This document shows, piece by piece, positions 13,669 to 42,113 of a stretch of 52,836 nt of DNA. Source of the stretch: a virus; IMG/VR virus record IMGVR_UViG_3300025738_000002; one strand, 5' to 3'. Below the pieces are notes generated by a model. It was not told the DNA's origin. It did no database searches and saw nothing but the letters and a program-made list of their open reading frames with translations. A program made the position numbers and the translations under genes. Position 1 is the stretch's first letter, and the number at the start of each line of letters is the position of its first letter.

Positions 13669-16308
13669 ATGCCTATTGAGGTTGTATATGAAGAGGTAAA
13701 CCTGATAACCGACCCTTCAAGTCCTATCGTAAATGCCACAATTGTAGATTACGTTGACGGATTAATAGTACCAACTAGCATCGATTCTTTAACTGATACG
13801 CCAGAGGTAAAATCTGCAAGTTCATTTATGGCCGTAAATAGGGTTGGCGACTTAATGGAATATGTTAAGCCTGCACTTAACCAAGGTGACGGCATTGATA
13901 TTACCAGTCCACAATTAATAGATAGCCCGACGGTTTCAGTTGATAGCACTGTGGTAAGAACGTCACGACAGATTATTTCGGGTGAGGGGCTTAGCGGCGG
14001 TGGTGATTTAGCTTCGAATAGGACTATTCAGGTAAACACTGATCGCGGGTTAAATATAGCAAGCGATAAAGTTGGAGTTAACACACCATTAAACAGTGGC
14101 CTTTCTGCAGGTGTTGATTTAAAAGTTGATATAGGGAATACATCAGAAACAACAACGGCTAACGGGTCAGACGTTTTATTAATAGAGCAGCCTAGCGGAA
14201 TCAAAAAACGCATTACTCGCGATAATTTATTCGCAGGTTTTGGTAGTGGCTCAGAGCTTAGAGGCTCAGTTAATCCAAGGTCTACAGACCCAACGCCGAT
14301 TACGACGCTAACGGTGAGCGGAGATCCAAATAACCCCAACATCATGCAAGGCGTTGCGCCTACCGGTCCTATTCCAAGTGGTTACACGTATGTAGTCCTG
14401 CTTGACGCTGCAGATAAGTCAACAGGCGTCACGGTTAGAATGGGCGGCACGTCTGGTTCTGCTACCGATTATATCGTATTCGATCAAGATCAACTTGTAT
14501 GGGCAGGTTCCGGTGGTGTTGGTGCCTTTGTTCATCTACAGACTGGTGACGCAGTAATATCTGTTCATGGCCGTCAAGGTGTGATCGTAGGTGACAACGG
14601 TGATTACACCGCCTCGCAGATAGTTAATATCCCTCATGATGATATTACAGAAAGCAACGCTCAAGCAGCGATTGATCAAGTAGCAGATAACCGAGTTAAA
14701 AAGTCTGGCGACACTATGACAGGGCCATTAATTTCGTCTAGATACGGTCGGTTTGATGGCGGTATTTATGTTGATGGAACAGGCGCTAGCAACTTAGCAA
14801 TTTCATCTAACAATAGCTTTCATAATGTAAGCGCTCTTAGTAATACTAAAAAATACTGTTTGTGGGGAGACTCATCAACATACACGATTGGTATGTCAGA
14901 CGCTTATGACTACGGCGCGGTTACAGCTCATGCAACAACATTTACAATGGGAAATCCTGATCAAGGCTGGATATTTAGACGCAGCACGAACCCAACCGGA
15001 CAAGCTGCAATGTCTTTATCTGGTGACGGTCAAATGAAAGTTGATAGCACTGTAACCGCGCCGTTATTTGTCGGTAGTGTTACAGCGCCAACAGTCACAG
15101 CGGTAAGCAAGTTAATCGTTCCTGTTGAAGGTGCGACGGCAGGCGTTAAGGCTCAATTCCGATATAACGATACAGAAGGCTTCCAAGGCCATAACGGAAC
15201 CGAGTGGGGTTCTATTGGTGGCGGTGGCGTACCTGACTTCGAAGTGATAGCGGCATCTGCTATTTCTGCAGAGGCAAAAAATGCGTATTCATTCGACGTT
15301 ACTTTAAGAGATTGCACCGTCACAGCGCCGACCAAGAAGGTTAATGATTGGTTCGTTACTGGTATCTATGGCGATAGCTCAGCCGGTGGCAATAATATGA
15401 TTCTTACATCCACCGATAAGATCATGGGTAGTGATGAAGATTTTACGCTATCAACAGAATACGCATACATATACTGGTCGTACCTTGATGACGTACTAGG
15501 CTGGGTAATCGTTAATGCAGTAGGTGAGTCAGAAGCGCCACAGGCAATTAAAACTCAAGTTAAAAACACATTCGCTATCGGTACTGATACGTTTTCGATT
15601 GATTACGATTTAGGTTTTGTTGACGTATACATTAACGGTTACAAGCTTCCTGAAACAGAATTCAATGCGGCAACAGGAACGAACGTTGTTCTAAATACAC
15701 CGCTATCCCGTGAGTCATATGTTTATATCGTAGCGTGGAATCACTTGCTTGAGTCAGACGTTAAAGCGTCAATGGTGTCTACTGATTCTGGTGATACAGT
15801 TCAAACTGAGTTGAATATGGTAAAGGCTAAAGCTGATTCGATTCAAGACTGGATTGATAAAACTCATGGCATAGGTTCAGTTGTTTTAAGAATGGATGCG
15901 ATTAACCCGAGTACTTTATTTGGCGGCACTTGGGCGTTAATCACTGGTGATGCTTCGTTAAGTTTTGGTAATGGCTCAAACCAATCAGGTACAGCTAGCG
16001 GTAGTAATAATCCAGCAGTGCCGGTGGTTCAGCATAGACACGGGATCAGTCATAACCACCCAGCCGCAACAACCAGTTCAGACACCCATAACCACACATT
16101 TACAATTGTTGGCGATGGTGGTTCTGGCTACGCTGACGCAGGCGGATCGTCAAATCTAGGTAACGCAACAACGTCAAGCGACACGCACAACCACACTTTT
16201 AACGTTCCTAATTATAGCGGTTATTCAGCCTACACTGGTTCGTCAGGTGCAACTTTGAACGTTCGAGGCGCGCAGATTGATATTAACGTCTGGAAGCGCA
16301 CAGCATAG
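13669..16308 (+). CDS. Tail fibre protein with C-terminal HxH repeat tip
   Basis: Contains the fibre motif KKSGDTMTGPL, Gly-rich repeats, and a C-terminal LFGGTWALITGD followed by a duplicated TTSSDTHNHTF. Confidence 0.8.
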   Translation: MPIEVVYEEVNLITDPSSPIVNATIVDYVDGLIVPTSIDSLTDTPEVKSASSFMAVNRVGDLMEYVKPALNQGDGIDITSPQLIDSPTVSVDSTVVRTSRQIISGEGLSGGGDLASNRTIQVNTDRGLNIASDKVGVNTPLNSGLSAGVDLKVDIGNTSETTTANGSDVLLIEQPSGIKKRITRDNLFAGFGSGSELRGSVNPRSTDPTPITTLTVSGDPNNPNIMQGVAPTGPIPSGYTYVVLLDAADKSTGVTVRMGGTSGSATDYIVFDQDQLVWAGSGGVGAFVHLQTGDAVISVHGRQGVIVGDNGDYTASQIVNIPHDDITESNAQAAIDQVADNRVKKSGDTMTGPLISSRYGRFDGGIYVDGTGASNLAISSNNSFHNVSALSNTKKYCLWGDSSTYTIGMSDAYDYGAVTAHATTFTMGNPDQGWIFRRSTNPTGQAAMSLSGDGQMKVDSTVTAPLFVGSVTAPTVTAVSKLIVPVEGATAGVKAQFRYNDTEGFQGHNGTEWGSIGGGGVPDFEVIAASAISAEAKNAYSFDVTLRDCTVTAPTKKVNDWFVTGIYGDSSAGGNNMILTSTDKIMGSDEDFTLSTEYAYIYWSYLDDVLGWVIVNAVGESEAPQAIKTQVKNTFAIGTDTFSIDYDLGFVDVYINGYKLPETEFNAATGTNVVLNTPLSRESYVYIVAWNHLLESDVKASMVSTDSGDTVQTELNMVKAKADSIQDWIDKTHGIGSVVLRMDAINPSTLFGGTWALITGDASLSFGNGSNQSGTASGSNNPAVPVVQHRHGISHNHPAATTSSDTHNHTFTIVGDGGSGYADAGGSSNLGNATTSSDTHNHTFNVPNYSGYSAYTGSSGATLNVRGAQIDINVWKRTA

Positions 16309-27803: not shown

Positions 27804-28175
27804 CTTCCATTCTGTACTTGTTTCTTCTTCTATTAACGCCTCAAGTCCGATGGCGATAGCTTGGATTAAAACGCCATGCGTTGTATTTGGTGATATATTG
27901 CTATTTGCAGCAAACCAAGTTGCAACTTCATAATGCCATTCAGGGCAACGGACATTTGTTCTAGTGCCGATTTGAGGCAGCGCCTTCTCATCGCTCTTCG
28001 CCTGAAAAGATTTAGCTAATGAATCATCGCGCCAAGGATACTTAACAGCATTCTCGCTACCCTTTGAATCATCAGAGCCAAGCATAAAAGTGCTTTCTTC
28101 ATTAGTTAATTCGTCATCAAGTTTGTTTTTATTCTTCTTCTTCATGATTCCGTCTAACGATGGTTTATTACTCAT
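27801..28175 (-). CDS. Putative centromere-binding protein (ParG/ParB analogue of a type-Ib system)
   Basis: Small and charged, with a disordered N-terminus. It is translationally coupled downstream of ParA. The C-terminal TRTNVRCPEWHYEVATWFAANSNISPNTTHGVLIQAIAIGL is compatible with a ribbon-helix-helix fold. Confidence 0.5.
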   Translation of the reverse strand: MSNKPSLDGIMKKKNKNKLDDELTNEESTFMLGSDDSKGSENAVKYPWRDDSLAKSFQAKSDEKALPQIGTRTNVRCPEWHYEVATWFAANSNISPNTTHGVLIQAIAIGLEALIEEETSTEWK

Positions 28176-28810
28176 TTGAAAATAACCTTAAATAGTGATT
28201 CAATTTCTTCTTTAGCTTGTTTGTTTTTCATCTCGTAAACACCTTCACCAGTTAAAAGGCAATCACGATAAGCCTTACGATCATAAATATTAGGCGCTAA
28301 TTCGAATACATCAATTTGCTCTAATATTTCTCGCCATTGTCTATTTTCATGTTTATTGGTAACGGATGTATTACACATGTTAAGCATAGCAACAGCCCTA
28401 AGCTTCGGGTTTATCTCTGCCACTTCTTCTAAAGCTTCCAACATGTCCGGTATAGTTCCAAAATCACCCTTTGACGGTTTGAAAGGCATGACCATAACAT
28501 CTGCCACCATCATTGCTGATCTCATTTCATCTGAGTTACGGCCGGCAACATCAACTACCACATGATCATACTTTTTAGCTAGTTCAACAATCGTGTTTTT
28601 AATCTTCCCGTATTTCTGAACTAAGGGGATATACTTTAAATCGCTTTCGTTCTCTTCTCTATCTTCCGTCCAGTTAGACGCTGTTTCCTGCCTATCAGAA
28701 TCTAATATCACCAAGCTAGACTTCATATTGTTTTTTACATGCGCGGCAAGATTTACGCATATAGTTGACTTACCGCAACCACCCTTTCTATTACCAAGTA
28801 AAATAATCAT
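28172..28810 (-). CDS. parA: ParA-family partition ATPase (small, type Ib)
   Basis: Deviant Walker A LGNRKGGCGKST lies at the N-terminus when the start is ATG 28810. The track start at 28870 would run through the operator palindrome. Confidence 0.85.
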   Translation of the reverse strand: MIILLGNRKGGCGKSTICVNLAAHVKNNMKSSLVILDSDRQETASNWTEDREENESDLKYIPLVQKYGKIKNTIVELAKKYDHVVVDVAGRNSDEMRSAMMVADVMVMPFKPSKGDFGTIPDMLEALEEVAEINPKLRAVAMLNMCNTSVTNKHENRQWREILEQIDVFELAPNIYDRKAYRDCLLTGEGVYEMKNKQAKEEIESLFKVIFK

Positions 28811-28839
28811 GATCCAGATCCCATTTATTAACCATAACG

Positions 28840-28858
28840 TGACACACAGTGTGTGTCC
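28840..28858. promoter_or_regulatory. Palindromic box GACACAC-AGT-GTGTGTC in the parA leader/promoter
   Basis: Perfect 7-bp arms. It lies just downstream of a TATTAT -10-like hexamer on the minus strand. Confidence 0.65.
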
Positions 28859-28891
28859 AATGTGTGCCATAATACACTAAATAGAGGCGTT

Positions 28892-30248: not shown

Positions 30249-31283
30249 ATGAATCTAAATTCAGTGGGTATAACAGACAGGAAGGATATGCTGTGCAAGC
30301 TGCTTTTAAACAAGCAAACCATGCAGCAGATATTTAGAGAATTCGATAGTGAAGAATCATTGGCCAAGTTTAAAGATAAGTTTTTAAATGGGATCGAGGG
30401 CATTATTGATGAGAAGAACAAGGCCGAGTCAGACCGATGGAAGAAAATAGAAGAGTCAACAGAAATATTAAATCTTCTAAAAGAGCGCGGCCTAACCATT
30501 GACGACTTGCACTCAGCAACAAATATTAATCGCTCACGATGCTTAGACACTAAAATACCTATTCACAGAAAGCTAACCCATAAACTAGCCAACCTAGGGA
30601 CTCTAACAAACCCTAAGTACAATGGGGCGTTCTATAATATAGATGGAAAGCTGGTCAACGTGGTCCACCGTCTAGAACCTTCATCGCTTCGTAAAGATAT
30701 GGTAGCGGTAATAAATGCAACTGGCATAACTCGCAAAGAATTCATTCATAACGCTAAACAGTTGTTTTTAGACTTAGAGCAAAACAAAGACGGCGAGATC
30801 CGAAACCCGCCTAATTACATTCGTTCGCAGCAAAAAAAGCCAAAAATAACGCCTCTTATAGATATGGATTTACACTTAGAACACCACGACGACAACGCAG
30901 ATATTCTTAACTCGTTAGATATTGACCAAAGTGACGAGGGTGAGTCTCAACTGCTGTTTCTTGAGCCTAAAGAAACCGCCATCGTTGATCCGGTAGAACA
31001 AGATGAGCAAGTAACAAAACAAAAGCAGCTTACGTCACCACTCAAGCAGGTGATCATAGCGGACCTTGGTAATGTCGTTATTAACACAGATAAGAAAATC
31101 AGCCTAAAACTGCATTACAAAGCAATTGACTACATTCGCGCAGCCTTAAACGGCAAGATGAACTTTATGAAGCTTAAAGGTAGCGGACATTACTGCTTAA
31201 ACGTGGGCCAAACAATTCGCATAATCACCGAAGACAAGCACGATTTCCGCATCATGGACGTTAAAACATTTAATAAACTATAA
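30249..31283 (+). CDS. Hypothetical 344-aa protein (candidate Rep-like or toxin-domain protein; acidic central linker; RelE/ParE-like C-terminal pattern)
   Basis: AT-rich island. C-terminal KLKGSGHYCLNVGQTIRIITEDKHDFRIMDV resembles the RelE/ParE core. I can confirm no domain. Confidence 0.55.
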   Translation: MNLNSVGITDRKDMLCKLLLNKQTMQQIFREFDSEESLAKFKDKFLNGIEGIIDEKNKAESDRWKKIEESTEILNLLKERGLTIDDLHSATNINRSRCLDTKIPIHRKLTHKLANLGTLTNPKYNGAFYNIDGKLVNVVHRLEPSSLRKDMVAVINATGITRKEFIHNAKQLFLDLEQNKDGEIRNPPNYIRSQQKKPKITPLIDMDLHLEHHDDNADILNSLDIDQSDEGESQLLFLEPKETAIVDPVEQDEQVTKQKQLTSPLKQVIIADLGNVVINTDKKISLKLHYKAIDYIRAALNGKMNFMKLKGSGHYCLNVGQTIRIITEDKHDFRIMDVKTFNKL

Positions 31284-31376: not shown

Positions 31377-32888
31377 ATGGAAAACAACATAATTCTCTAC
31401 AGGTCTTTTGTAGACGGATCGAACATCTCTAAGAAAGAATCAGAGTGGGTTAAGAATTCCGGCTTTGAAAACTTGGGTATTTCGAGGAGGGTAAATAGAT
31501 ACTGCCTCGATTCATTAATATGTATAAAAACATTTATCTATGAGCATTTATTAGAACCTATCACCTTAACCATCTTGATTAGCGAGATGAACTGTATTGA
31601 AAAGCATGACGCATCAAAGGTTTACGAAGAGCTTAAGTTGCTAATAGGAACAGGGGTTAAATTCTCAATCGTAGGTAATGAGACTATATACTCTAGAGAA
31701 AATATATCCGAAGCGATGAATCTCGTCTTGTGCATGTTCGAGCTTTGGGAAGCTAAAAGCGAATCAATCAAAAAATCAAATTCAGCAACTAAGATATGGA
31801 GTAAGAAAAGGGAACTTATAGAGAGGGGAGAAAAGCCAAAGCTCAAAAGTCCGTCATGGTTCTCTTATGACGATATTAATAAAAAATATATTTTAAATGA
31901 TTTATCTGTGTCAGTTAAATTATGCTTTGAAAAGTACCTAGAAACTAAATCAATGTCTGCAACCGCAAAGCTCCTTAATAAGTTAAATGTTAAGACTTTA
32001 GGGTCAGCTAAAGCGTGGGGCCAAACATCAGTTAGGCAGGTTTTAATTAGCCAATCATCATACGGCCTGCTTGAAGCTAGGACATTTCAGTACGATAATT
32101 TTTATCCAGCCGTCATTTCAAAAGAGCTATTTTATTTGGTTCAAGCTGAAATTAAAAAGCGGTCAACAAAAAACACCGAGCCAATAAAGGCAAATTTAAA
32201 GACGGCAAACCTGTTAACTAAGATCGCAAAATGTGGGGTTTGTGGCTCAAGCATATTCATGCACGGAAAAAGAAAAGAGATACTAAATGGCACCATTCAG
32301 GATTATCGATATCTCAATTGTTCTAGCCGTAAATACCATGACAAAAAATGTTCACTGCCTAGCTTTAGATATAAATACGTTGAGGCAATAGTCATCGTTA
32401 TAGCTGGACTGCTTGATAAAATGCCAACGCAAAACGAAACTATTGAACGTGTCGGATACCTTCAAGGTAGGCTGATGGCATTAAAAGAAAGTAAACGATT
32501 ACTAGAGTCTAAAATAGAAACTCTCACCGAAATAATATCAGAATTACCGAGTGATATTATCAAAGAGAAATTAAGAACTAACAGCATGGAATTAGAGGTC
32601 GCTGGCGATGAAATAAGCGAGGTTAAGCAGGAGATATCTGTAATAAATCAGGTTGGTGGCCGTGAAGATCTGTATAAGAAAATCACCGAGCTATCTAAAG
32701 ATTTAACCATTGATGATAATCGAGCGGAATTCATTATTAACCTGTCAAAGATATTTGATATCTGCAATTTTAACGAAGATGGTTCCATTTATATTCAGTC
32801 TATGAAAAATGAGATTAGAGTCAATAAAACCAAGGGCGACGTTAAAATTAACACCCCTGAATTTGAGCTGTCGGTTCACGTATCTTAA
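31377..32888 (+). CDS. Large-serine-recombinase-like protein with apparently degenerate catalytic motifs
   Basis: Recombinase-domain pattern (SMSATAKLLNKLNVKTLGSAKAWGQTSVRQVLISQSSYG), zinc-ribbon (CGVCGSS...YRYLNCSSRKYHDKKC) and coiled coil are present. The N-terminus has YRS instead of Y-x-R-x-S, and NCIEK where DRLxR is expected. Confidence 0.65.
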   Translation: MENNIILYRSFVDGSNISKKESEWVKNSGFENLGISRRVNRYCLDSLICIKTFIYEHLLEPITLTILISEMNCIEKHDASKVYEELKLLIGTGVKFSIVGNETIYSRENISEAMNLVLCMFELWEAKSESIKKSNSATKIWSKKRELIERGEKPKLKSPSWFSYDDINKKYILNDLSVSVKLCFEKYLETKSMSATAKLLNKLNVKTLGSAKAWGQTSVRQVLISQSSYGLLEARTFQYDNFYPAVISKELFYLVQAEIKKRSTKNTEPIKANLKTANLLTKIAKCGVCGSSIFMHGKRKEILNGTIQDYRYLNCSSRKYHDKKCSLPSFRYKYVEAIVIVIAGLLDKMPTQNETIERVGYLQGRLMALKESKRLLESKIETLTEIISELPSDIIKEKLRTNSMELEVAGDEISEVKQEISVINQVGGREDLYKKITELSKDLTIDDNRAEFIINLSKIFDICNFNEDGSIYIQSMKNEIRVNKTKGDVKINTPEFELSVHVS

Positions 32889-40264: not shown

Positions 40265-40616
40265 GGGGCAGTTAGACTTATTTGCTTACTGGTTACGAAA
40301 TGATAAATGCATCTCAAGTCGTGAGGTAAGCGGACTAAACCAAGGCTACCAAGTCCAAGCCGGTGAGAACAAAGGTGCTAAGAAATCTGGTACTGATGGT
40401 GCTTACCTATCCGCACACTTAAAATACATTAACCGAATATATTTAACGCTGACAGTTAAGCAGCGGGCGGTTTTTGATATTGAATACGGGGTTGCAAATG
40501 ACCAGCCATGTCATAACCAGCTCGAACGCGCTGACCATCTTGGCCTGTCGATCATGGCATATAAAAAACGCCTCCGTAATTGCAGGATCACATTTAGAGA
40601 TCAGTTATCAAAATAA
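40254..40616 (+). CDS. Putative HTH transcription regulator (sigma-70 region-4-like)
   Basis: LTVKQRAVFDIEYGV...ERADHLGLSIMAYKKRLRNCRITFRDQL resembles a region-4 / LuxR-type HTH. Confidence 0.4.
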   Translation: MDFEGQLDLFAYWLRNDKCISSREVSGLNQGYQVQAGENKGAKKSGTDGAYLSAHLKYINRIYLTLTVKQRAVFDIEYGVANDQPCHNQLERADHLGLSIMAYKKRLRNCRITFRDQLSK

Positions 40617-40659
40617 CAATTGACGATATAGGGTATCTTGTTTACTATAAATGCTTATT

Positions 40660-40740
40660 GTCGGTGTAGCTCAGTTGGTAGAGCGTGAGGGTTTTTAATA
40701 GTCTCCCTTAAGGTCGTTTGTTCAATTCAAATCACCGGCG
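40660..40740 (+). tRNA. tRNA-like gene with canonical acceptor, D and T arms but a 13-15-nt anticodon loop (contains the Lys-UUU-type loop TTTTTAA plus an insertion)
   Basis: Hand fold: GTCGGTG/CACCGGC acceptor, GCTC-AGTTGGTA-GAGC D arm, TGAGG/CCTTA anticodon stem, loop GTTTTTAATAGTCTC, variable AGGTC, and GTTTG-TTCAATT-CAAAT T arm. No CCA is encoded. Confidence 0.55.
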
Positions 40741-40745
40741 CAAAA

Positions 40746-40830
40746 TATTTTTATGGTGTCACTGATTTTTAAATCGAATGTTTCCTGACTTCTTGTATTT
40801 ATTGAGCCTGTCAGTGACACCATAAAAATA
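40746..40830 (+). ncRNA. 20-bp perfect inverted repeat (TATTTTTATGGTGTCACTGA / TCAGTGACACCATAAAAATA) around a 45-nt loop
   Basis: The arms at 40746-40765 and 40811-40830 are exact reverse complements. Confidence 0.5.
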
Positions 40831-40839
40831 ACTAACAAT

Positions 40840-40886
40840 GGGATAACGCACTGGTTTCATGTCCGGTGGAAAAGGTTATCCCGCCA
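40840..40886 (+). ncRNA. CCA-terminated mini-helix A (47 nt): 8-bp terminal stem, internal hairpin, GAAAAG, then GCCA
   Basis: GGGATAAC...GTTATCCC-GCCA. The inner stem CACTGG/CCGGTG carries the loop TTTCATGT. Confidence 0.45.
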
Positions 40887-40892
40887 AATTAT

Positions 40893-40959
40893 GGGACAGT
40901 TTCAGAGTTCGATCTGATCGTTTCGCTCTGTTTATCCGCTGCGTGGAGCTGTCCCGCCA
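40893..40959 (+). ncRNA. CCA-terminated tRNA-like element B (67 nt)
   Basis: GGGACAG...CTGTCCC-GCCA. It contains a T-arm-like TCAGA-GTTCGA-TCTGA but I could not fold a canonical cloverleaf. Confidence 0.4.
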
Positions 40960-40965
40960 GATTGT

Positions 40966-41055
40966 AGAGAATTGGCCGAGTGGCTTATGGTAGCCCCTTG
41001 CTAAGGGGCCGGTGATTAAAATTACCCGTGGGTTCGAATCCTACATTCTCTGCCA
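40966..41055 (+). tRNA. tRNA-Ser (anticodon GCT), class II with a long variable arm, CCA encoded
   Basis: Hand fold: AGAGAAT/ATTCTCT acceptor, GCCCC-TTGCTAA-GGGGC anticodon arm, variable arm GGTGAT-TAAA-ATTACC, T loop TTCGAAT, then G-CCA. Confidence 0.85.
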
Positions 41056-41061
41056 AATTAT

Positions 41062-41117
41062 GCATTCCCCTAAATCCACCAAGATTGTCGTGATGAAAAG
41101 CGGCGGGGAGTGCGCCA
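41062..41117 (+). ncRNA. CCA-terminated mini-helix C (56 nt)
   Basis: GCATTCCCC...GGGGAGTGC-GCCA. A GAAAAG motif precedes the 3-prime strand, as in element A. Confidence 0.4.
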
Positions 41118-41121
41118 CATT

Positions 41122-41197
41122 GGGCCTGTAACTCAGGGGTTAGAGTGTTCGACTCATAATCGAAGCGTCGCTAGTTCAAATCTAGCTAGGCCCACCA
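41122..41197 (+). tRNA. tRNA-Met (anticodon CAT; elongator Met, or Ile2 if lysidinylated), CCA encoded
   Basis: A perfect 76-nt cloverleaf by hand: GGGCCTG/TAGGCCC, ACTC-AGGGGTTA-GAGT, TTCGA-CTCATAA-TCGAA, GCGTC, GCTAG-TTCAAAT-CTAGC, then A-CCA. Confidence 0.9.
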
Positions 41198-41205
41198 AGA
41201 TATCA

Positions 41206-41264
41206 AACGGGTAGCAATCAGTTGATAGGTTCATTCAGTCGTACCGATTTCACTGCTACCCGTT
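41206..41264 (+). ncRNA. Hairpin element D (11-bp stem AACGGGTAGCA/TGCTACCCGTT, 37-nt loop, no CCA)
   Basis: Read directly. It closes the tRNA array. Confidence 0.4.
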
Positions 41265-41382
41265 AGATATATCCAAGGTAAGCCGATGTAGTTGGTTTAT
41301 CAGGTGCTAATAGAATCATCTTAAATTGTGGTGCTTTTTATTATACGTTCTATTAGCATCTGATAAATTAATTAGGTATGTC

Positions 41383-41742
41383 ATGACTAAAAAATGTAGC
41401 TCTTGTGGGGTCGTTAAGCCAAGAATTGAATTCTATAAGAACAAACAACGTTATGACGGCCTGCAGAATAATTGCATACCTTGCTCTAAGATTGCCGCTA
41501 GAGTAAACAGGGCTAAAAACCCTGATATCGGCAAGCCAAAAACCATAACGACTAAGGCCCAGCGCCTAGAGTATCAGCGAGAATATCAGCGCAAAAGACG
41601 CGCAAGCATTCCAAAAAAACCACGCGTTAATGCAGTTTCAACAGATAAATATTATTTGAAATATCTTGAGGCTGACAGAAAGTTATTAACTCATAGCCAA
41701 CTGTACCGGAAAATACTAATGATGATGCCAGTTACATGTTAA
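41383..41742 (+). CDS. Zinc-ribbon basic protein, paralogue 1
   Basis: CSSCGVVKPRIEFYKNKQRYDGLQNNCIPC. Same C-x2-C...DGLQN.C..C motif as the next gene. Confidence 0.55.
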   Translation: MTKKCSSCGVVKPRIEFYKNKQRYDGLQNNCIPCSKIAARVNRAKNPDIGKPKTITTKAQRLEYQREYQRKRRASIPKKPRVNAVSTDKYYLKYLEADRKLLTHSQLYRKILMMMPVTC

Positions 41743-42113
41743 AGCGATGCAATAAATGCGAAGAGTTTAAGCCGCGTTATGAATTCAGTAAACGGGCCAT
41801 GACTAAAGGCGATGGCCTGCAGAATAGATGCAAATCATGCGCCGCTGCATATCACGCTAACCGCTTAAGTTTAGGTATTAAAAATAAGCGCGCTAAGGTC
41901 AGCGTCGAAGCATCCAAGCGGTACAGAATAAAGAACGCTGAGAAAATAGCTGAGTATCAACGCGCCTACCAAGCACGGAAGAAAAAGCCAGAAATCAAGC
42001 CTGATGACAACGATTACCACTACAACAAAGTTGAAACCAAGCAGAATAAAGAAGACAGGCTGTATCGCTCTGTTATTTTTGGTATGCCTTCAATCCCTGT
42101 GTCCGGTTCGTGA
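41736..42113 (+). CDS. Zinc-ribbon basic protein, paralogue 2
   Basis: CNKCEEFKPRYEFSKRAMTKGDGLQNRCKSC. Both paralogues also share an EYQR.YQ.+++ basic tail. Confidence 0.55.
   Translation: MLKRCNKCEEFKPRYEFSKRAMTKGDGLQNRCKSCAAAYHANRLSLGIKNKRAKVSVEASKRYRIKNAEKIAEYQRAYQARKKKPEIKPDDNDYHYNKVETKQNKEDRLYRSVIFGMPSIPVSGS

Follow-up and report, generated by a model that had tools for sequence, protein, structure and literature searches.

Candidate genes of miniature tRNA-like RNAs interleaved with the tRNA genes of a phage array

Short CCA-ended units in a phage tRNA array

What are the short CCA-terminated elements that lie among the tRNA genes of the virus IMGVR_UViG_3300025738_000002: decayed tRNAs, aids to the processing of their neighbours, or genes of RNAs in their own right? 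In this 52.8-kb stretch of DNA (referred to below as the window) we examined the block 40600-41400 on the + strand by ARAGORN, Rfam and folding. Five units, namely A, B, tRNA-Ser(GCU), C and tRNA(CAU), follow one another there head to tail on the + strand. Each of them consists of a terminal stem of 7-9 base pairs (bp), a discriminator base and an encoded CCA, and AU-rich spacers of 4-6 nucleotides (nt) separate them. The feature is real and selected, and it is a miniature form of a kind that is known yet unexplained. On balance, we consider it probable that A, B and C are genes of small non-decoding tRNA-like RNAs in a phage tRNA operon, and we say the same of an element, D, found in two related phages. 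The array is made up as follows.

40840-40886, + strand: element A, 47 nt; 8-bp stem GGGAUAAC/GUUAUCCC, 6-bp internal hairpin, GGAAAAG linker, then G and CCA
40887-40892, + strand: spacer AAUUAU, which puts U at position -1 of B
40893-40959, + strand: element B, 67 nt; stem GGGACAG(U)/(G)CUGUCCC of 7-8 bp, two hairpins, then G and CCA
40960-40965, + strand: spacer GAUUGU, to be read in the same way as the spacer at 40887-40892
40966-41055, + strand: tRNA-Ser(GCU), canonical type II with G73 and CCA; called by ARAGORN, Rfam tRNA score 46.6 bits
41056-41061, + strand: spacer AAUUAU
41062-41117, + strand: element C, 56 nt; 9-bp stem GCAUUCCCC/GGGGAGUGC, hairpin AAUC-CACCAA-GAUU, second hairpin, then G and CCA
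41118-41121, + strand: spacer CAUU
41122-41197, + strand: tRNA(CAU), Met or, if lysidinylated, Ile2; ends ACCA; called by ARAGORN, Rfam tRNA score 63.8 bits

A first-pass annotation of this DNA had described five consecutive NCCA-ended units with acceptor-like stems, two of them genuine tRNAs. The exact coordinates, the folds and the chaining analysed below agree with the former statement, and the latter is borne out by both ARAGORN and the Rfam tRNA model. The short and similar spacers that it had pointed out are also there, except that the final G or A assigned to them is in fact nucleotide +1 of the next unit. The limits of the block have to be redrawn. An end at 41264 would include a hairpin (41200-41270) that stands apart and is no CCA unit, while in the other direction the same conserved block reaches upstream to 40620 and includes a tRNA-like gene (element 0) and a long hairpin (40746-40832).

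In the predicted folds a closing stem encloses one hairpin in A and two hairpins in B and C, and leaves unpaired a tail of G and CCA. The second hairpin of B and of C abuts the 3' strand of the terminal stem, which gives a stack of 13 bp in B and 14 bp in C. This stack is like the acceptor/T-arm half of a tRNA, but the loops (UGC, GAUGAAAA) are not T-loops. A and B present an identical end (GGGA.../...UCCC-G-CCA), whereas the ends of C and D differ. The invariant hexaloop CACCAA of C (41072-41087) amounts to a second ACCA, displayed in a loop.

A mechanical scan of the whole window for a 7-bp stem followed by N and CCA returned 17 matches on the + strand and 20 on the - strand, and a single match is therefore uninformative. 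The chaining of such matches (within 10 nt of one another) is a different measure. Four chained units were found, solely at the array; 100 first-order Markov simulations yielded 0.04 on average and never more than 1. On the minus strand of the window no chained unit was found. The head-to-tail chaining thus exceeds chance by a wide margin.

A, B and C are not tRNAs. They matched no Rfam family, tRNA (RF00005) included, at the gathering score or at E <= 10 with permissive filters, and they were called by ARAGORN neither at lowered thresholds nor in its mitochondrial mode at the default threshold. (With -mt at -ps80 the program makes 15-16 overlapping calls per 650-800 nt on both strands; these are inconsistent between phages and represent noise.) A UUCRANY T-loop is conserved in none of the three. 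What they do have is a tRNA-like end: G and CCA come after a stem of 8 bp in A, 7-8 bp in B and 9 bp in C. The earlier remark that they are too short for a cloverleaf accords with the lack of a tRNA covariance-model match and of an ARAGORN call. Local alignment of A, B, C, D and a further element of the related phages, E (see below), against 47 tRNAs and stable RNAs from the array, its relatives, T4 and T5 gave no score above shuffles. Two specific derivations from tRNA were considered and rejected: an armless or reduced tRNA, given the lack of a conserved anticodon loop and the negative result of ARAGORN -mt at its default threshold, and a deletion derivative of a tRNA from the array, T4 or T5, given the lack of a significant alignment.

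Conservation in two related phages

Three versions only of the array occur in the collections searched, one in the window and two in relatives that we refer to as L001 and L004. A blastn search of the block against 50,697 GenBank phage records gave matches restricted to the two tRNAs, and a protein-guided scan of IMG/VR led to one locus. The replication protein encoded near the array (phrog_4913) has five relatives among 5.8 billion proteins, and the array is present in two of these five: L001, a 50.7-kb contig of Moritella sp. PE36 (with L003, L008 and L026 identical to it), and L004, a 53-kb metagenome scaffold and metagenome-assembled-genome contig (with L009 identical to it). The three farther relatives of the protein (38-48% identity; two of them in prophages, one of which is in Shewanella submarina) come without tRNA genes. 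The array is absent from the two prophage loci, which were covered for 10 kb downstream of the replication gene, and the third locus stops just past that gene and is uninformative in this respect. When viral, metagenome and genome collections were scanned for exact patterns of C and B, the same two phages were recovered and otherwise chance matches only, such as those in coding DNA of L002 and L024. An exact-protein look-up of a flanking open reading frame (ORF) returned no match. A pattern capturing the grammar of the array (GCCAAATTATG...GCCAAATT) was found at 13 loci, 12 of them by chance and one (L018) an ordinary tRNA array with the same spacers.

At four-fold degenerate sites of the replication gene the three phages are 37-50% identical, which is essentially saturated. 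By comparison, B is 78-90% identical among the three phages and C 89-100% (89% between the window and L001 or L004), the first 30 nt of C, its 5' half, varying at one position. All 19 proposed pairs of B are standard in all three sequences, whereas 33-49% were paired in controls with slid partners. Three of the pairs show compensatory changes (CAGAG/CUCUG to CAAGG/CCUUG in hairpin 1; C-G to U-A in hairpin 2), three further pairs are altered on one side by way of G.U, and the loop GAUCGUUUC is invariant. Taken over all stems, there are at least 8 G.U pairs and zero A.C mismatches on the + strand, and the RNA is therefore the + strand. Judging from these comparisons, B and C are under selection, above the neutral level, and the evidence indicates that it is the helices that are selected. 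The first-pass annotation had held that the elements are not random decay. This is upheld for B and C by identities above the neutral level and by compensatory changes in the stems of both relatives, the stems being kept in this manner in two relatives only.

The remaining slots of the array are more variable. The tRNA-Ser(GCU) gene is absent from L001 and L004, and its slot (14389-14539 in L001, 13920-14062 in L004) holds E followed by D. E is a hairpin without CCA that ends ...CGUCUUCU-AUCU. D is rod-like, with a stem of 10-11 bp, G and CCA, and is followed by the spacer AATTATG; between L001 and L004 its stem differs by one compensatory substitution, one paired deletion and one change of G-C to G.U. 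In the slot of A, both relatives retain the plan of stem, hairpin, 6-7-nt linker and stem as well as the 3' UAUCCCGCCA. A GAAAAG architecture common to A and C, as proposed earlier, turns out to be a coincidence of this genome, the motif being absent in the relatives. The resemblances are distributed in a mosaic manner: the window and L004 have in common the acceptor stem of element 0 and the type of the CAU tRNA, and L001 and L004 have in common A', B', E, D and C' (the primes marking the versions of A, B and C in the relatives). Whole cassettes, each a unit of the array, seem to have been exchanged at the AU-rich spacers.

The same comparison disposes of two other candidates. A minus-strand terminator within C (scan match 41118-41100) has not been retained in the relatives, and such a match does not exceed shuffle expectation. 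Small ORFs that span the block (e.g. 40859-40993) were also rejected: no small ORF runs across the block because indels of 1-2 nt between the phages break every frame.

Processing signals and rival explanations

All five units have U at position -1, four of the five have G at +1, and four of the five end in GCCA. Read against the features of an RNase P substrate (U-1, G+1-C72, GCCA), A, B and C are predicted substrates of this enzyme, and the earlier description of their ends as compatible with RNase P and CCA appears sound, the full expected set of end signals being present. For bacterial RNase P, a review (PMC11143913) describes a contact of N-1 with A248, the base pair of G+1 with C+72 and pairing between the P15 GGU and RCCA, as well as efficient cleavage of hairpin model substrates. 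On the 3' side, the RNase E motif (A/G)N|AU recurs at every unit (CCA-A|AU, CCA-G|AU, CCA-A|AU, CCA-C|AU and CCA-AG|AU) and would place the cut 1-2 nt past the CCA; in tRNA operons of E. coli RNase E cuts 1-3 nt 3' of CCA, with trailers such as CCA|AAUUCG (PMC5291269). The spacer AATTAT itself is found again after T4 rnaD and between ordinary tRNAs in the array of an unrelated IMG/VR phage (L018). From the end signals together with the spacer motifs we infer one precursor from which RNase E and RNase P would release the units, with trimming back to the CCA.

Following the rules of tRNA processing, a promoter at 40620-40648 would give rise to a polycistronic precursor extending from element 0 through the CAU tRNA. 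RNase E would cut each AU-rich spacer about 1 nt past the CCA (motif A76-N|AU), RNase P would separate U(-1) from G(+1) at the start of each unit, being directed there by the acceptor-like helix and by base pairing of GCCA with the P15 GGU, and 3' exonucleases would trim the 3' ends to CCA. Stable RNAs of 47, 67 and 56 nt with CCA ends would result, which selection would keep for their helices and particular loops. Speculatively, the acceptor end together with a specific loop might be offered to a protein that recognises tRNA ends, the RNA acting as a mimic, sponge or decoy. The first-pass annotation had likewise named a decoy, a substrate of tRNA repair or a primer among possible roles. A presentation of the acceptor end is plausible because minihelices suffice for at least one antiphage toxin, FaRel2: this enzyme, which reads pairs 1, 2, 4 and 5 and the CCA, acts well on a synthetic acceptor minihelix (PMC11559606).

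A more far-reaching version, which we regard as unlikely, is that the mini-helices are acceptor-end decoys of the phage, made in bulk, that soak up acceptor-reading immune effectors and thereby spare the real tRNAs. The targets that one would name in that case, with the same reservation about their likelihood, are toxSAS enzymes of the CapRel/FaRel2 type (which pyrophosphorylate the CCA), nucleotidyltransferases of the MenT/AbiEii type and nucleases acting on the acceptor end. As the ends of C and D differ from the common end of A and B, the decoy set would span several tRNA identities.

Several observations weigh against A, B, C and D being small RNA genes of the kind proposed, or against particular parts of this proposal. 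Element A of the window is only ~50% identical to its relatives, no better than neutral, and the GCCA of A' in L001 and L004 can pair into a longer stem (in L001 the extended stem that pairs GCCA is followed by a second CCA, GCCACCCA). With three versions of the array to compare, the covariation is statistically weak: 23 of 500 shuffles reach the observed value. L001 and L004 differ in the sequences that flank A' and C' and yet are 97-100% identical within these two elements; in such a mosaic array some of the high identity may stem from recent exchange and not from selection. Between its promoter and its array, L001 has a terminator-like hairpin (CCCGC...GCGGGTTTTTT) as well as an ORF. Among the proteins of the window we found no CCA-adding enzyme, ligase, transferase or partner protein. 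Finally, the invariant loops (GAUCGUUUC in B and the 5' half of C) exceed the needs of a generic acceptor-end decoy, and appear to point to a partner more specific than such a decoy requires.

The same data can be read as the outcome of a passive role. A, B and C would then be tRNA remnants that are kept so that the precursor folds and is cut cleanly, protecting the maturation of the neighbour tRNAs, and we give this explanation a limited though appreciable chance. It is in keeping with the fact that end signals and spacers are the best-kept common features, that slots are interchangeable between phages (tRNA-Ser in one, hairpin E plus D in the others), that A retains little besides its architecture and 3' end, and that tRNA features have been lost from element 0 to differing degrees across the three phages. 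It leaves aside the internal hairpins, which processing does not need and which are nevertheless kept by compensatory changes, as well as the internal loops and the 5' half of C, which are invariant while neutral sites are saturated. Moreover, deletion of a dead tRNA would serve processing equally well in phage genomes, which are under size pressure. Decay without any role, i.e. internally deleted tRNA pseudogenes, was the null hypothesis of the first-pass annotation and is in our judgement very improbable, even if the location in a tRNA array and the retained tRNA-like ends agree with it and drift within the array is evidently possible, as seen in element 0 and element A. B and C remain 78-100% identical where four-fold sites are at 37-50%, their stems carry compensatory changes, and nothing relates the elements to a full-length tRNA as a simple deletion: there is no significant alignment to the 47 tRNAs and stable RNAs, no tRNA-model match at E <= 10 and no ARAGORN call. 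For B, C and D, neutral decay appears largely refuted.

Regulatory RNAs offer another precedent. The C4 RNAs of P1/P7 and the CI RNA of P4 are phage-encoded and ~77-79 nt long. RNase P matures them, and they consist of a closing stem and two hairpins with a short tail at the 3' end. B and C are built on a similar plan, the loops are invariant as would suit pairing with a phage or host mRNA, and the gene set is temperate- or plasmid-like, with a ParA-type ATPase and a serine recombinase. The elements could accordingly be antisense RNAs that use the stem and CCA for maturation and the loops for pairing. Nonetheless, we doubt this alternative. No Rfam C4 match was obtained at E <= 10 in 40600-41400, and the loops of C (at <= 3 mismatches) and B (at <= 2) found only themselves in the 52.8-kb window. 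In addition, C4 and CI RNAs sit in the leader of an immunity operon, whereas A, B and C are embedded among tRNAs. Least probable of all, to the point of being nearly dismissible, is an element acting as DNA, such as a replication origin, a cruciform or protein-binding inverted repeats beside the replication gene. The block does lie ~0.8 kb downstream of the gene for an origin-binding-helicase-like protein (phrog_4913) and is rich in inverted repeats. On the other hand, the G.U pairs of the stems occur on the + strand only and the substitutions preserve RNA pairing, the NCCA ends are phased with true tRNAs, which would be meaningless for DNA, and farther relatives with the same replication module are without the block (two prophage loci covered downstream).

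Known phage RNAs and the flanks of the array

Regarded as genes of small non-decoding tRNA-like RNAs, A, B, C and D have precedents. Phage stable RNAs encoded in tRNA regions have been known since the 1970s, and their function is still unfound. Extra non-decoding RNAs that bear tRNA ends in phage tRNA clusters are therefore an established kind, represented by rnaC and rnaD of T4 and by RNA I, RNA III and rna1-3 of T5; the first-pass annotation had not drawn this link. The T4 record (NC_000866, 70908-71247) has rnaC (species 1) and rnaD (species 2) beside tRNAs, and the T5 record (NC_005859, 30284-33949) lists eight genes of 'stable RNA' or 'tRNA-like RNA', with 'unknown functions', among tRNAs and HNH endonuclease genes. 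Like these, A, B and C lie within a tRNA cluster, on the same strand and with short spacers, and a comparison of the folds of A-D with those of the T4 and T5 RNAs shows the same terminal stem formed by the 5' and 3' ends and the same non-decoding character. There is no sequence homology to the described stable RNAs, either by blastn against the 50,697 phage records or by local alignment, which did not rise above shuffles.

The T5 RNAs provide close parallels. Like A-D, they lie between tRNA genes of the same strand, have a terminal stem and do not decode, and their cluster, like the array described here, is interspersed with ORFs of the homing-endonuclease type. T5 RNA I (GGCUC...GAGCC-G-CCA) has a stem and GCCA as in A-D, and rna3 (73 nt), with a closing stem, two hairpins and UACCA, follows the plan of B and C. 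A terminal stem is also predicted in RNA III, RNA IV and rna2 of T5 and in rnaC of T4, as it is in RNA I and rna3, whether or not an NCCA tail is present. The differences are in size, in the T-arm and in the evidence. Most T5 RNAs are 100-170 nt long, as opposed to 47-71 nt here; rna1 and rna2 retain a true T-arm (GGUUCGAAUCC) and A-D have none; and the T5 RNAs have been observed experimentally as RNA species, whereas A-D are known here from sequence alone. The T4 RNAs likewise share with A-D the location in a tRNA cluster and the strand, and rnaD, which ends ...GCGCACCA (ACCA), is followed by the identical spacer AAUUAU ahead of rnaC. With 119 and 139 nt, rnaC and rnaD are longer than A-D. 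Unlike A-D, rnaC has a canonical T-arm, and no pairing is predicted between the 5' and 3' ends of rnaD. Searched for T4, Rfam gave no match to rnaC or rnaD at gathering thresholds, and a covariance-model survey of phage stable RNAs has seemingly never been curated.

Two further groups of small tRNA-like molecules bear comparison. Armless mitochondrial tRNAs of nematodes and arachnids resemble A, B and C in having an acceptor stem and a reduced body (42-60 nt), but they keep a 7-nt anticodon loop and decode, and A, B and C are without a conserved anticodon loop. Acceptor/T-arm minihelices consist of a coaxial helix of ~12-14 bp, a discriminator and CCA, to be compared with 13 bp in B, 14 bp in C and 10-11 bp in D. 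They were made in the laboratory and include a T-loop; A-D occur in nature, have no T-loop motif and possess in addition a hairpin or bulges on the 5' side. Minihelices serve as model substrates for RNase P, CCA-adding enzyme, aminoacyl-tRNA synthetases and toxins that act on the acceptor end. They are cleaved by RNase P (PMC11143913) and modified by the toxSAS FaRel2 (PMC11559606).

What is new here is the miniature size and the occurrence of four such units in one short array, together with their presence in a small (52-kb) marine phage of apparently temperate or plasmid type and the comparative evidence for selection. The array represents the phage stable-RNA phenomenon in a minimal form of 47-71 nt, with little beyond an acceptor-like helix and CCA, and annotation pipelines ignore phage stable RNAs. 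Several antiphage toxins recognise only the acceptor stem and CCA end of a tRNA, and minimal natural mimics would therefore provide a compact and testable handle on this class of RNA. Should the RNAs be decoys, they would represent a new class of anti-defence genes made of RNA only and a possible explanation of the stable RNAs of T4 and T5. Should they be mere processing relics, they would call for caution in tRNA annotation and supply natural minimal RNase P substrates.

The array is flanked by the following features.

40620-40648, + strand: sigma-70-like promoter (TTGACG-17-TACTAT) ahead of the array, from a consensus scan
40660-40741, + strand: element 0, aberrant tRNA-like gene; cloverleaf with a 13-nt anticodon loop and 3' GCA in place of CCA
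40746-40832, + strand: long hairpin between element 0 and A; stem of ~21 bp, -30.8 kcal/mol, z = -7.9
41200-41270, + strand: hairpin past the last tRNA, not a CCA unit; fold z = -5.7
41291-41372, + strand: long hairpin (~26 bp), fold z = -6.6, directly 5' of the ribosome-binding site of the next gene
41383-41742 and 41736-42113, + strand: two paralogous zinc-ribbon ORFs; context, not part of the RNAs

Element 0 is called tRNA-Stop(tta) by ARAGORN and scores 49.8 bits with the Rfam tRNA model, with a 12-nt insertion in the anticodon loop. Its homologues are located at 13625-13700 in L004 and 14077-14163 in L001. The anticodon loop of the window's copy has 13 nt, and that of L004 has 7 nt with the anticodon AAA. 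In L001 it has 12 nt, and this copy has degenerate D- and T-loops as well. The 3' end reads GCA in the window, UCA in L004 and ACCA in L001, and two compensatory changes are seen in the acceptor stem. Element 0 looks like a tRNA that no longer decodes and is still maintained.

The putative promoter has a counterpart in both relatives, TTGAC(G/T)-17-TA(C/A)(T/G)AT with an upstream inverted repeat; the consensus scan alone is not above shuffle expectation. An inverted repeat, CAGTTAnCAAAATAACnnTTG, overlaps the -35 hexamer in all three phages (40600-40648 in the window, 13600-13650 in L001, 13560-13612 in L004) and may be an operator. Of the flanking hairpins, the one at 40746-40832 is conserved in both relatives, its stem having G.U pairs on the + strand, that at 41291-41372 is conserved in both with a G.U pair and compensatory changes, and that at 41200-41270 has at the equivalent place of L001 and L004 a hairpin of other sequence. 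These hairpins could be RNase III sites or controls of translation or termination.

The zinc-ribbon ORFs encode small, basic proteins with the motif C-x2-C ... EF ... DG-Q-x2-C-x2-C that belong to phrog_30859 and give weaker matches to endonuclease VII and HNH PHROGs. L001 has three paralogues (13733-14071, 14858-15196 and 15193-15537), one copy being inserted into the array. Among 79 IMG/VR loci with relatives of these ORFs, 13 have tRNAs within 3 kb, and in five the ORF lies inside a multi-tRNA array. This distribution suggests homing-endonuclease-type passengers of tRNA clusters, comparable to segB in T4 and hegA-E in T5, and such passengers could explain the mosaic exchange of cassettes. 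A role of the zinc-ribbon proteins as specific partners of the RNAs was considered and set aside, general passengers of tRNA arrays being more likely.

Elsewhere in the window there are genes for a ParA/MipZ-type ATPase, an H-NS-like protein, a large serine recombinase and a pilin-like ORF with an N-terminal methylation motif (the loci listed for these genes being 28172-28870 on the - strand, 30249-31283, 31377-32888 and 42172-42684). Given this gene set and the occurrence of the Moritella relative as a stand-alone contig of 50.7 kb, the phage may be temperate or a phage-plasmid.

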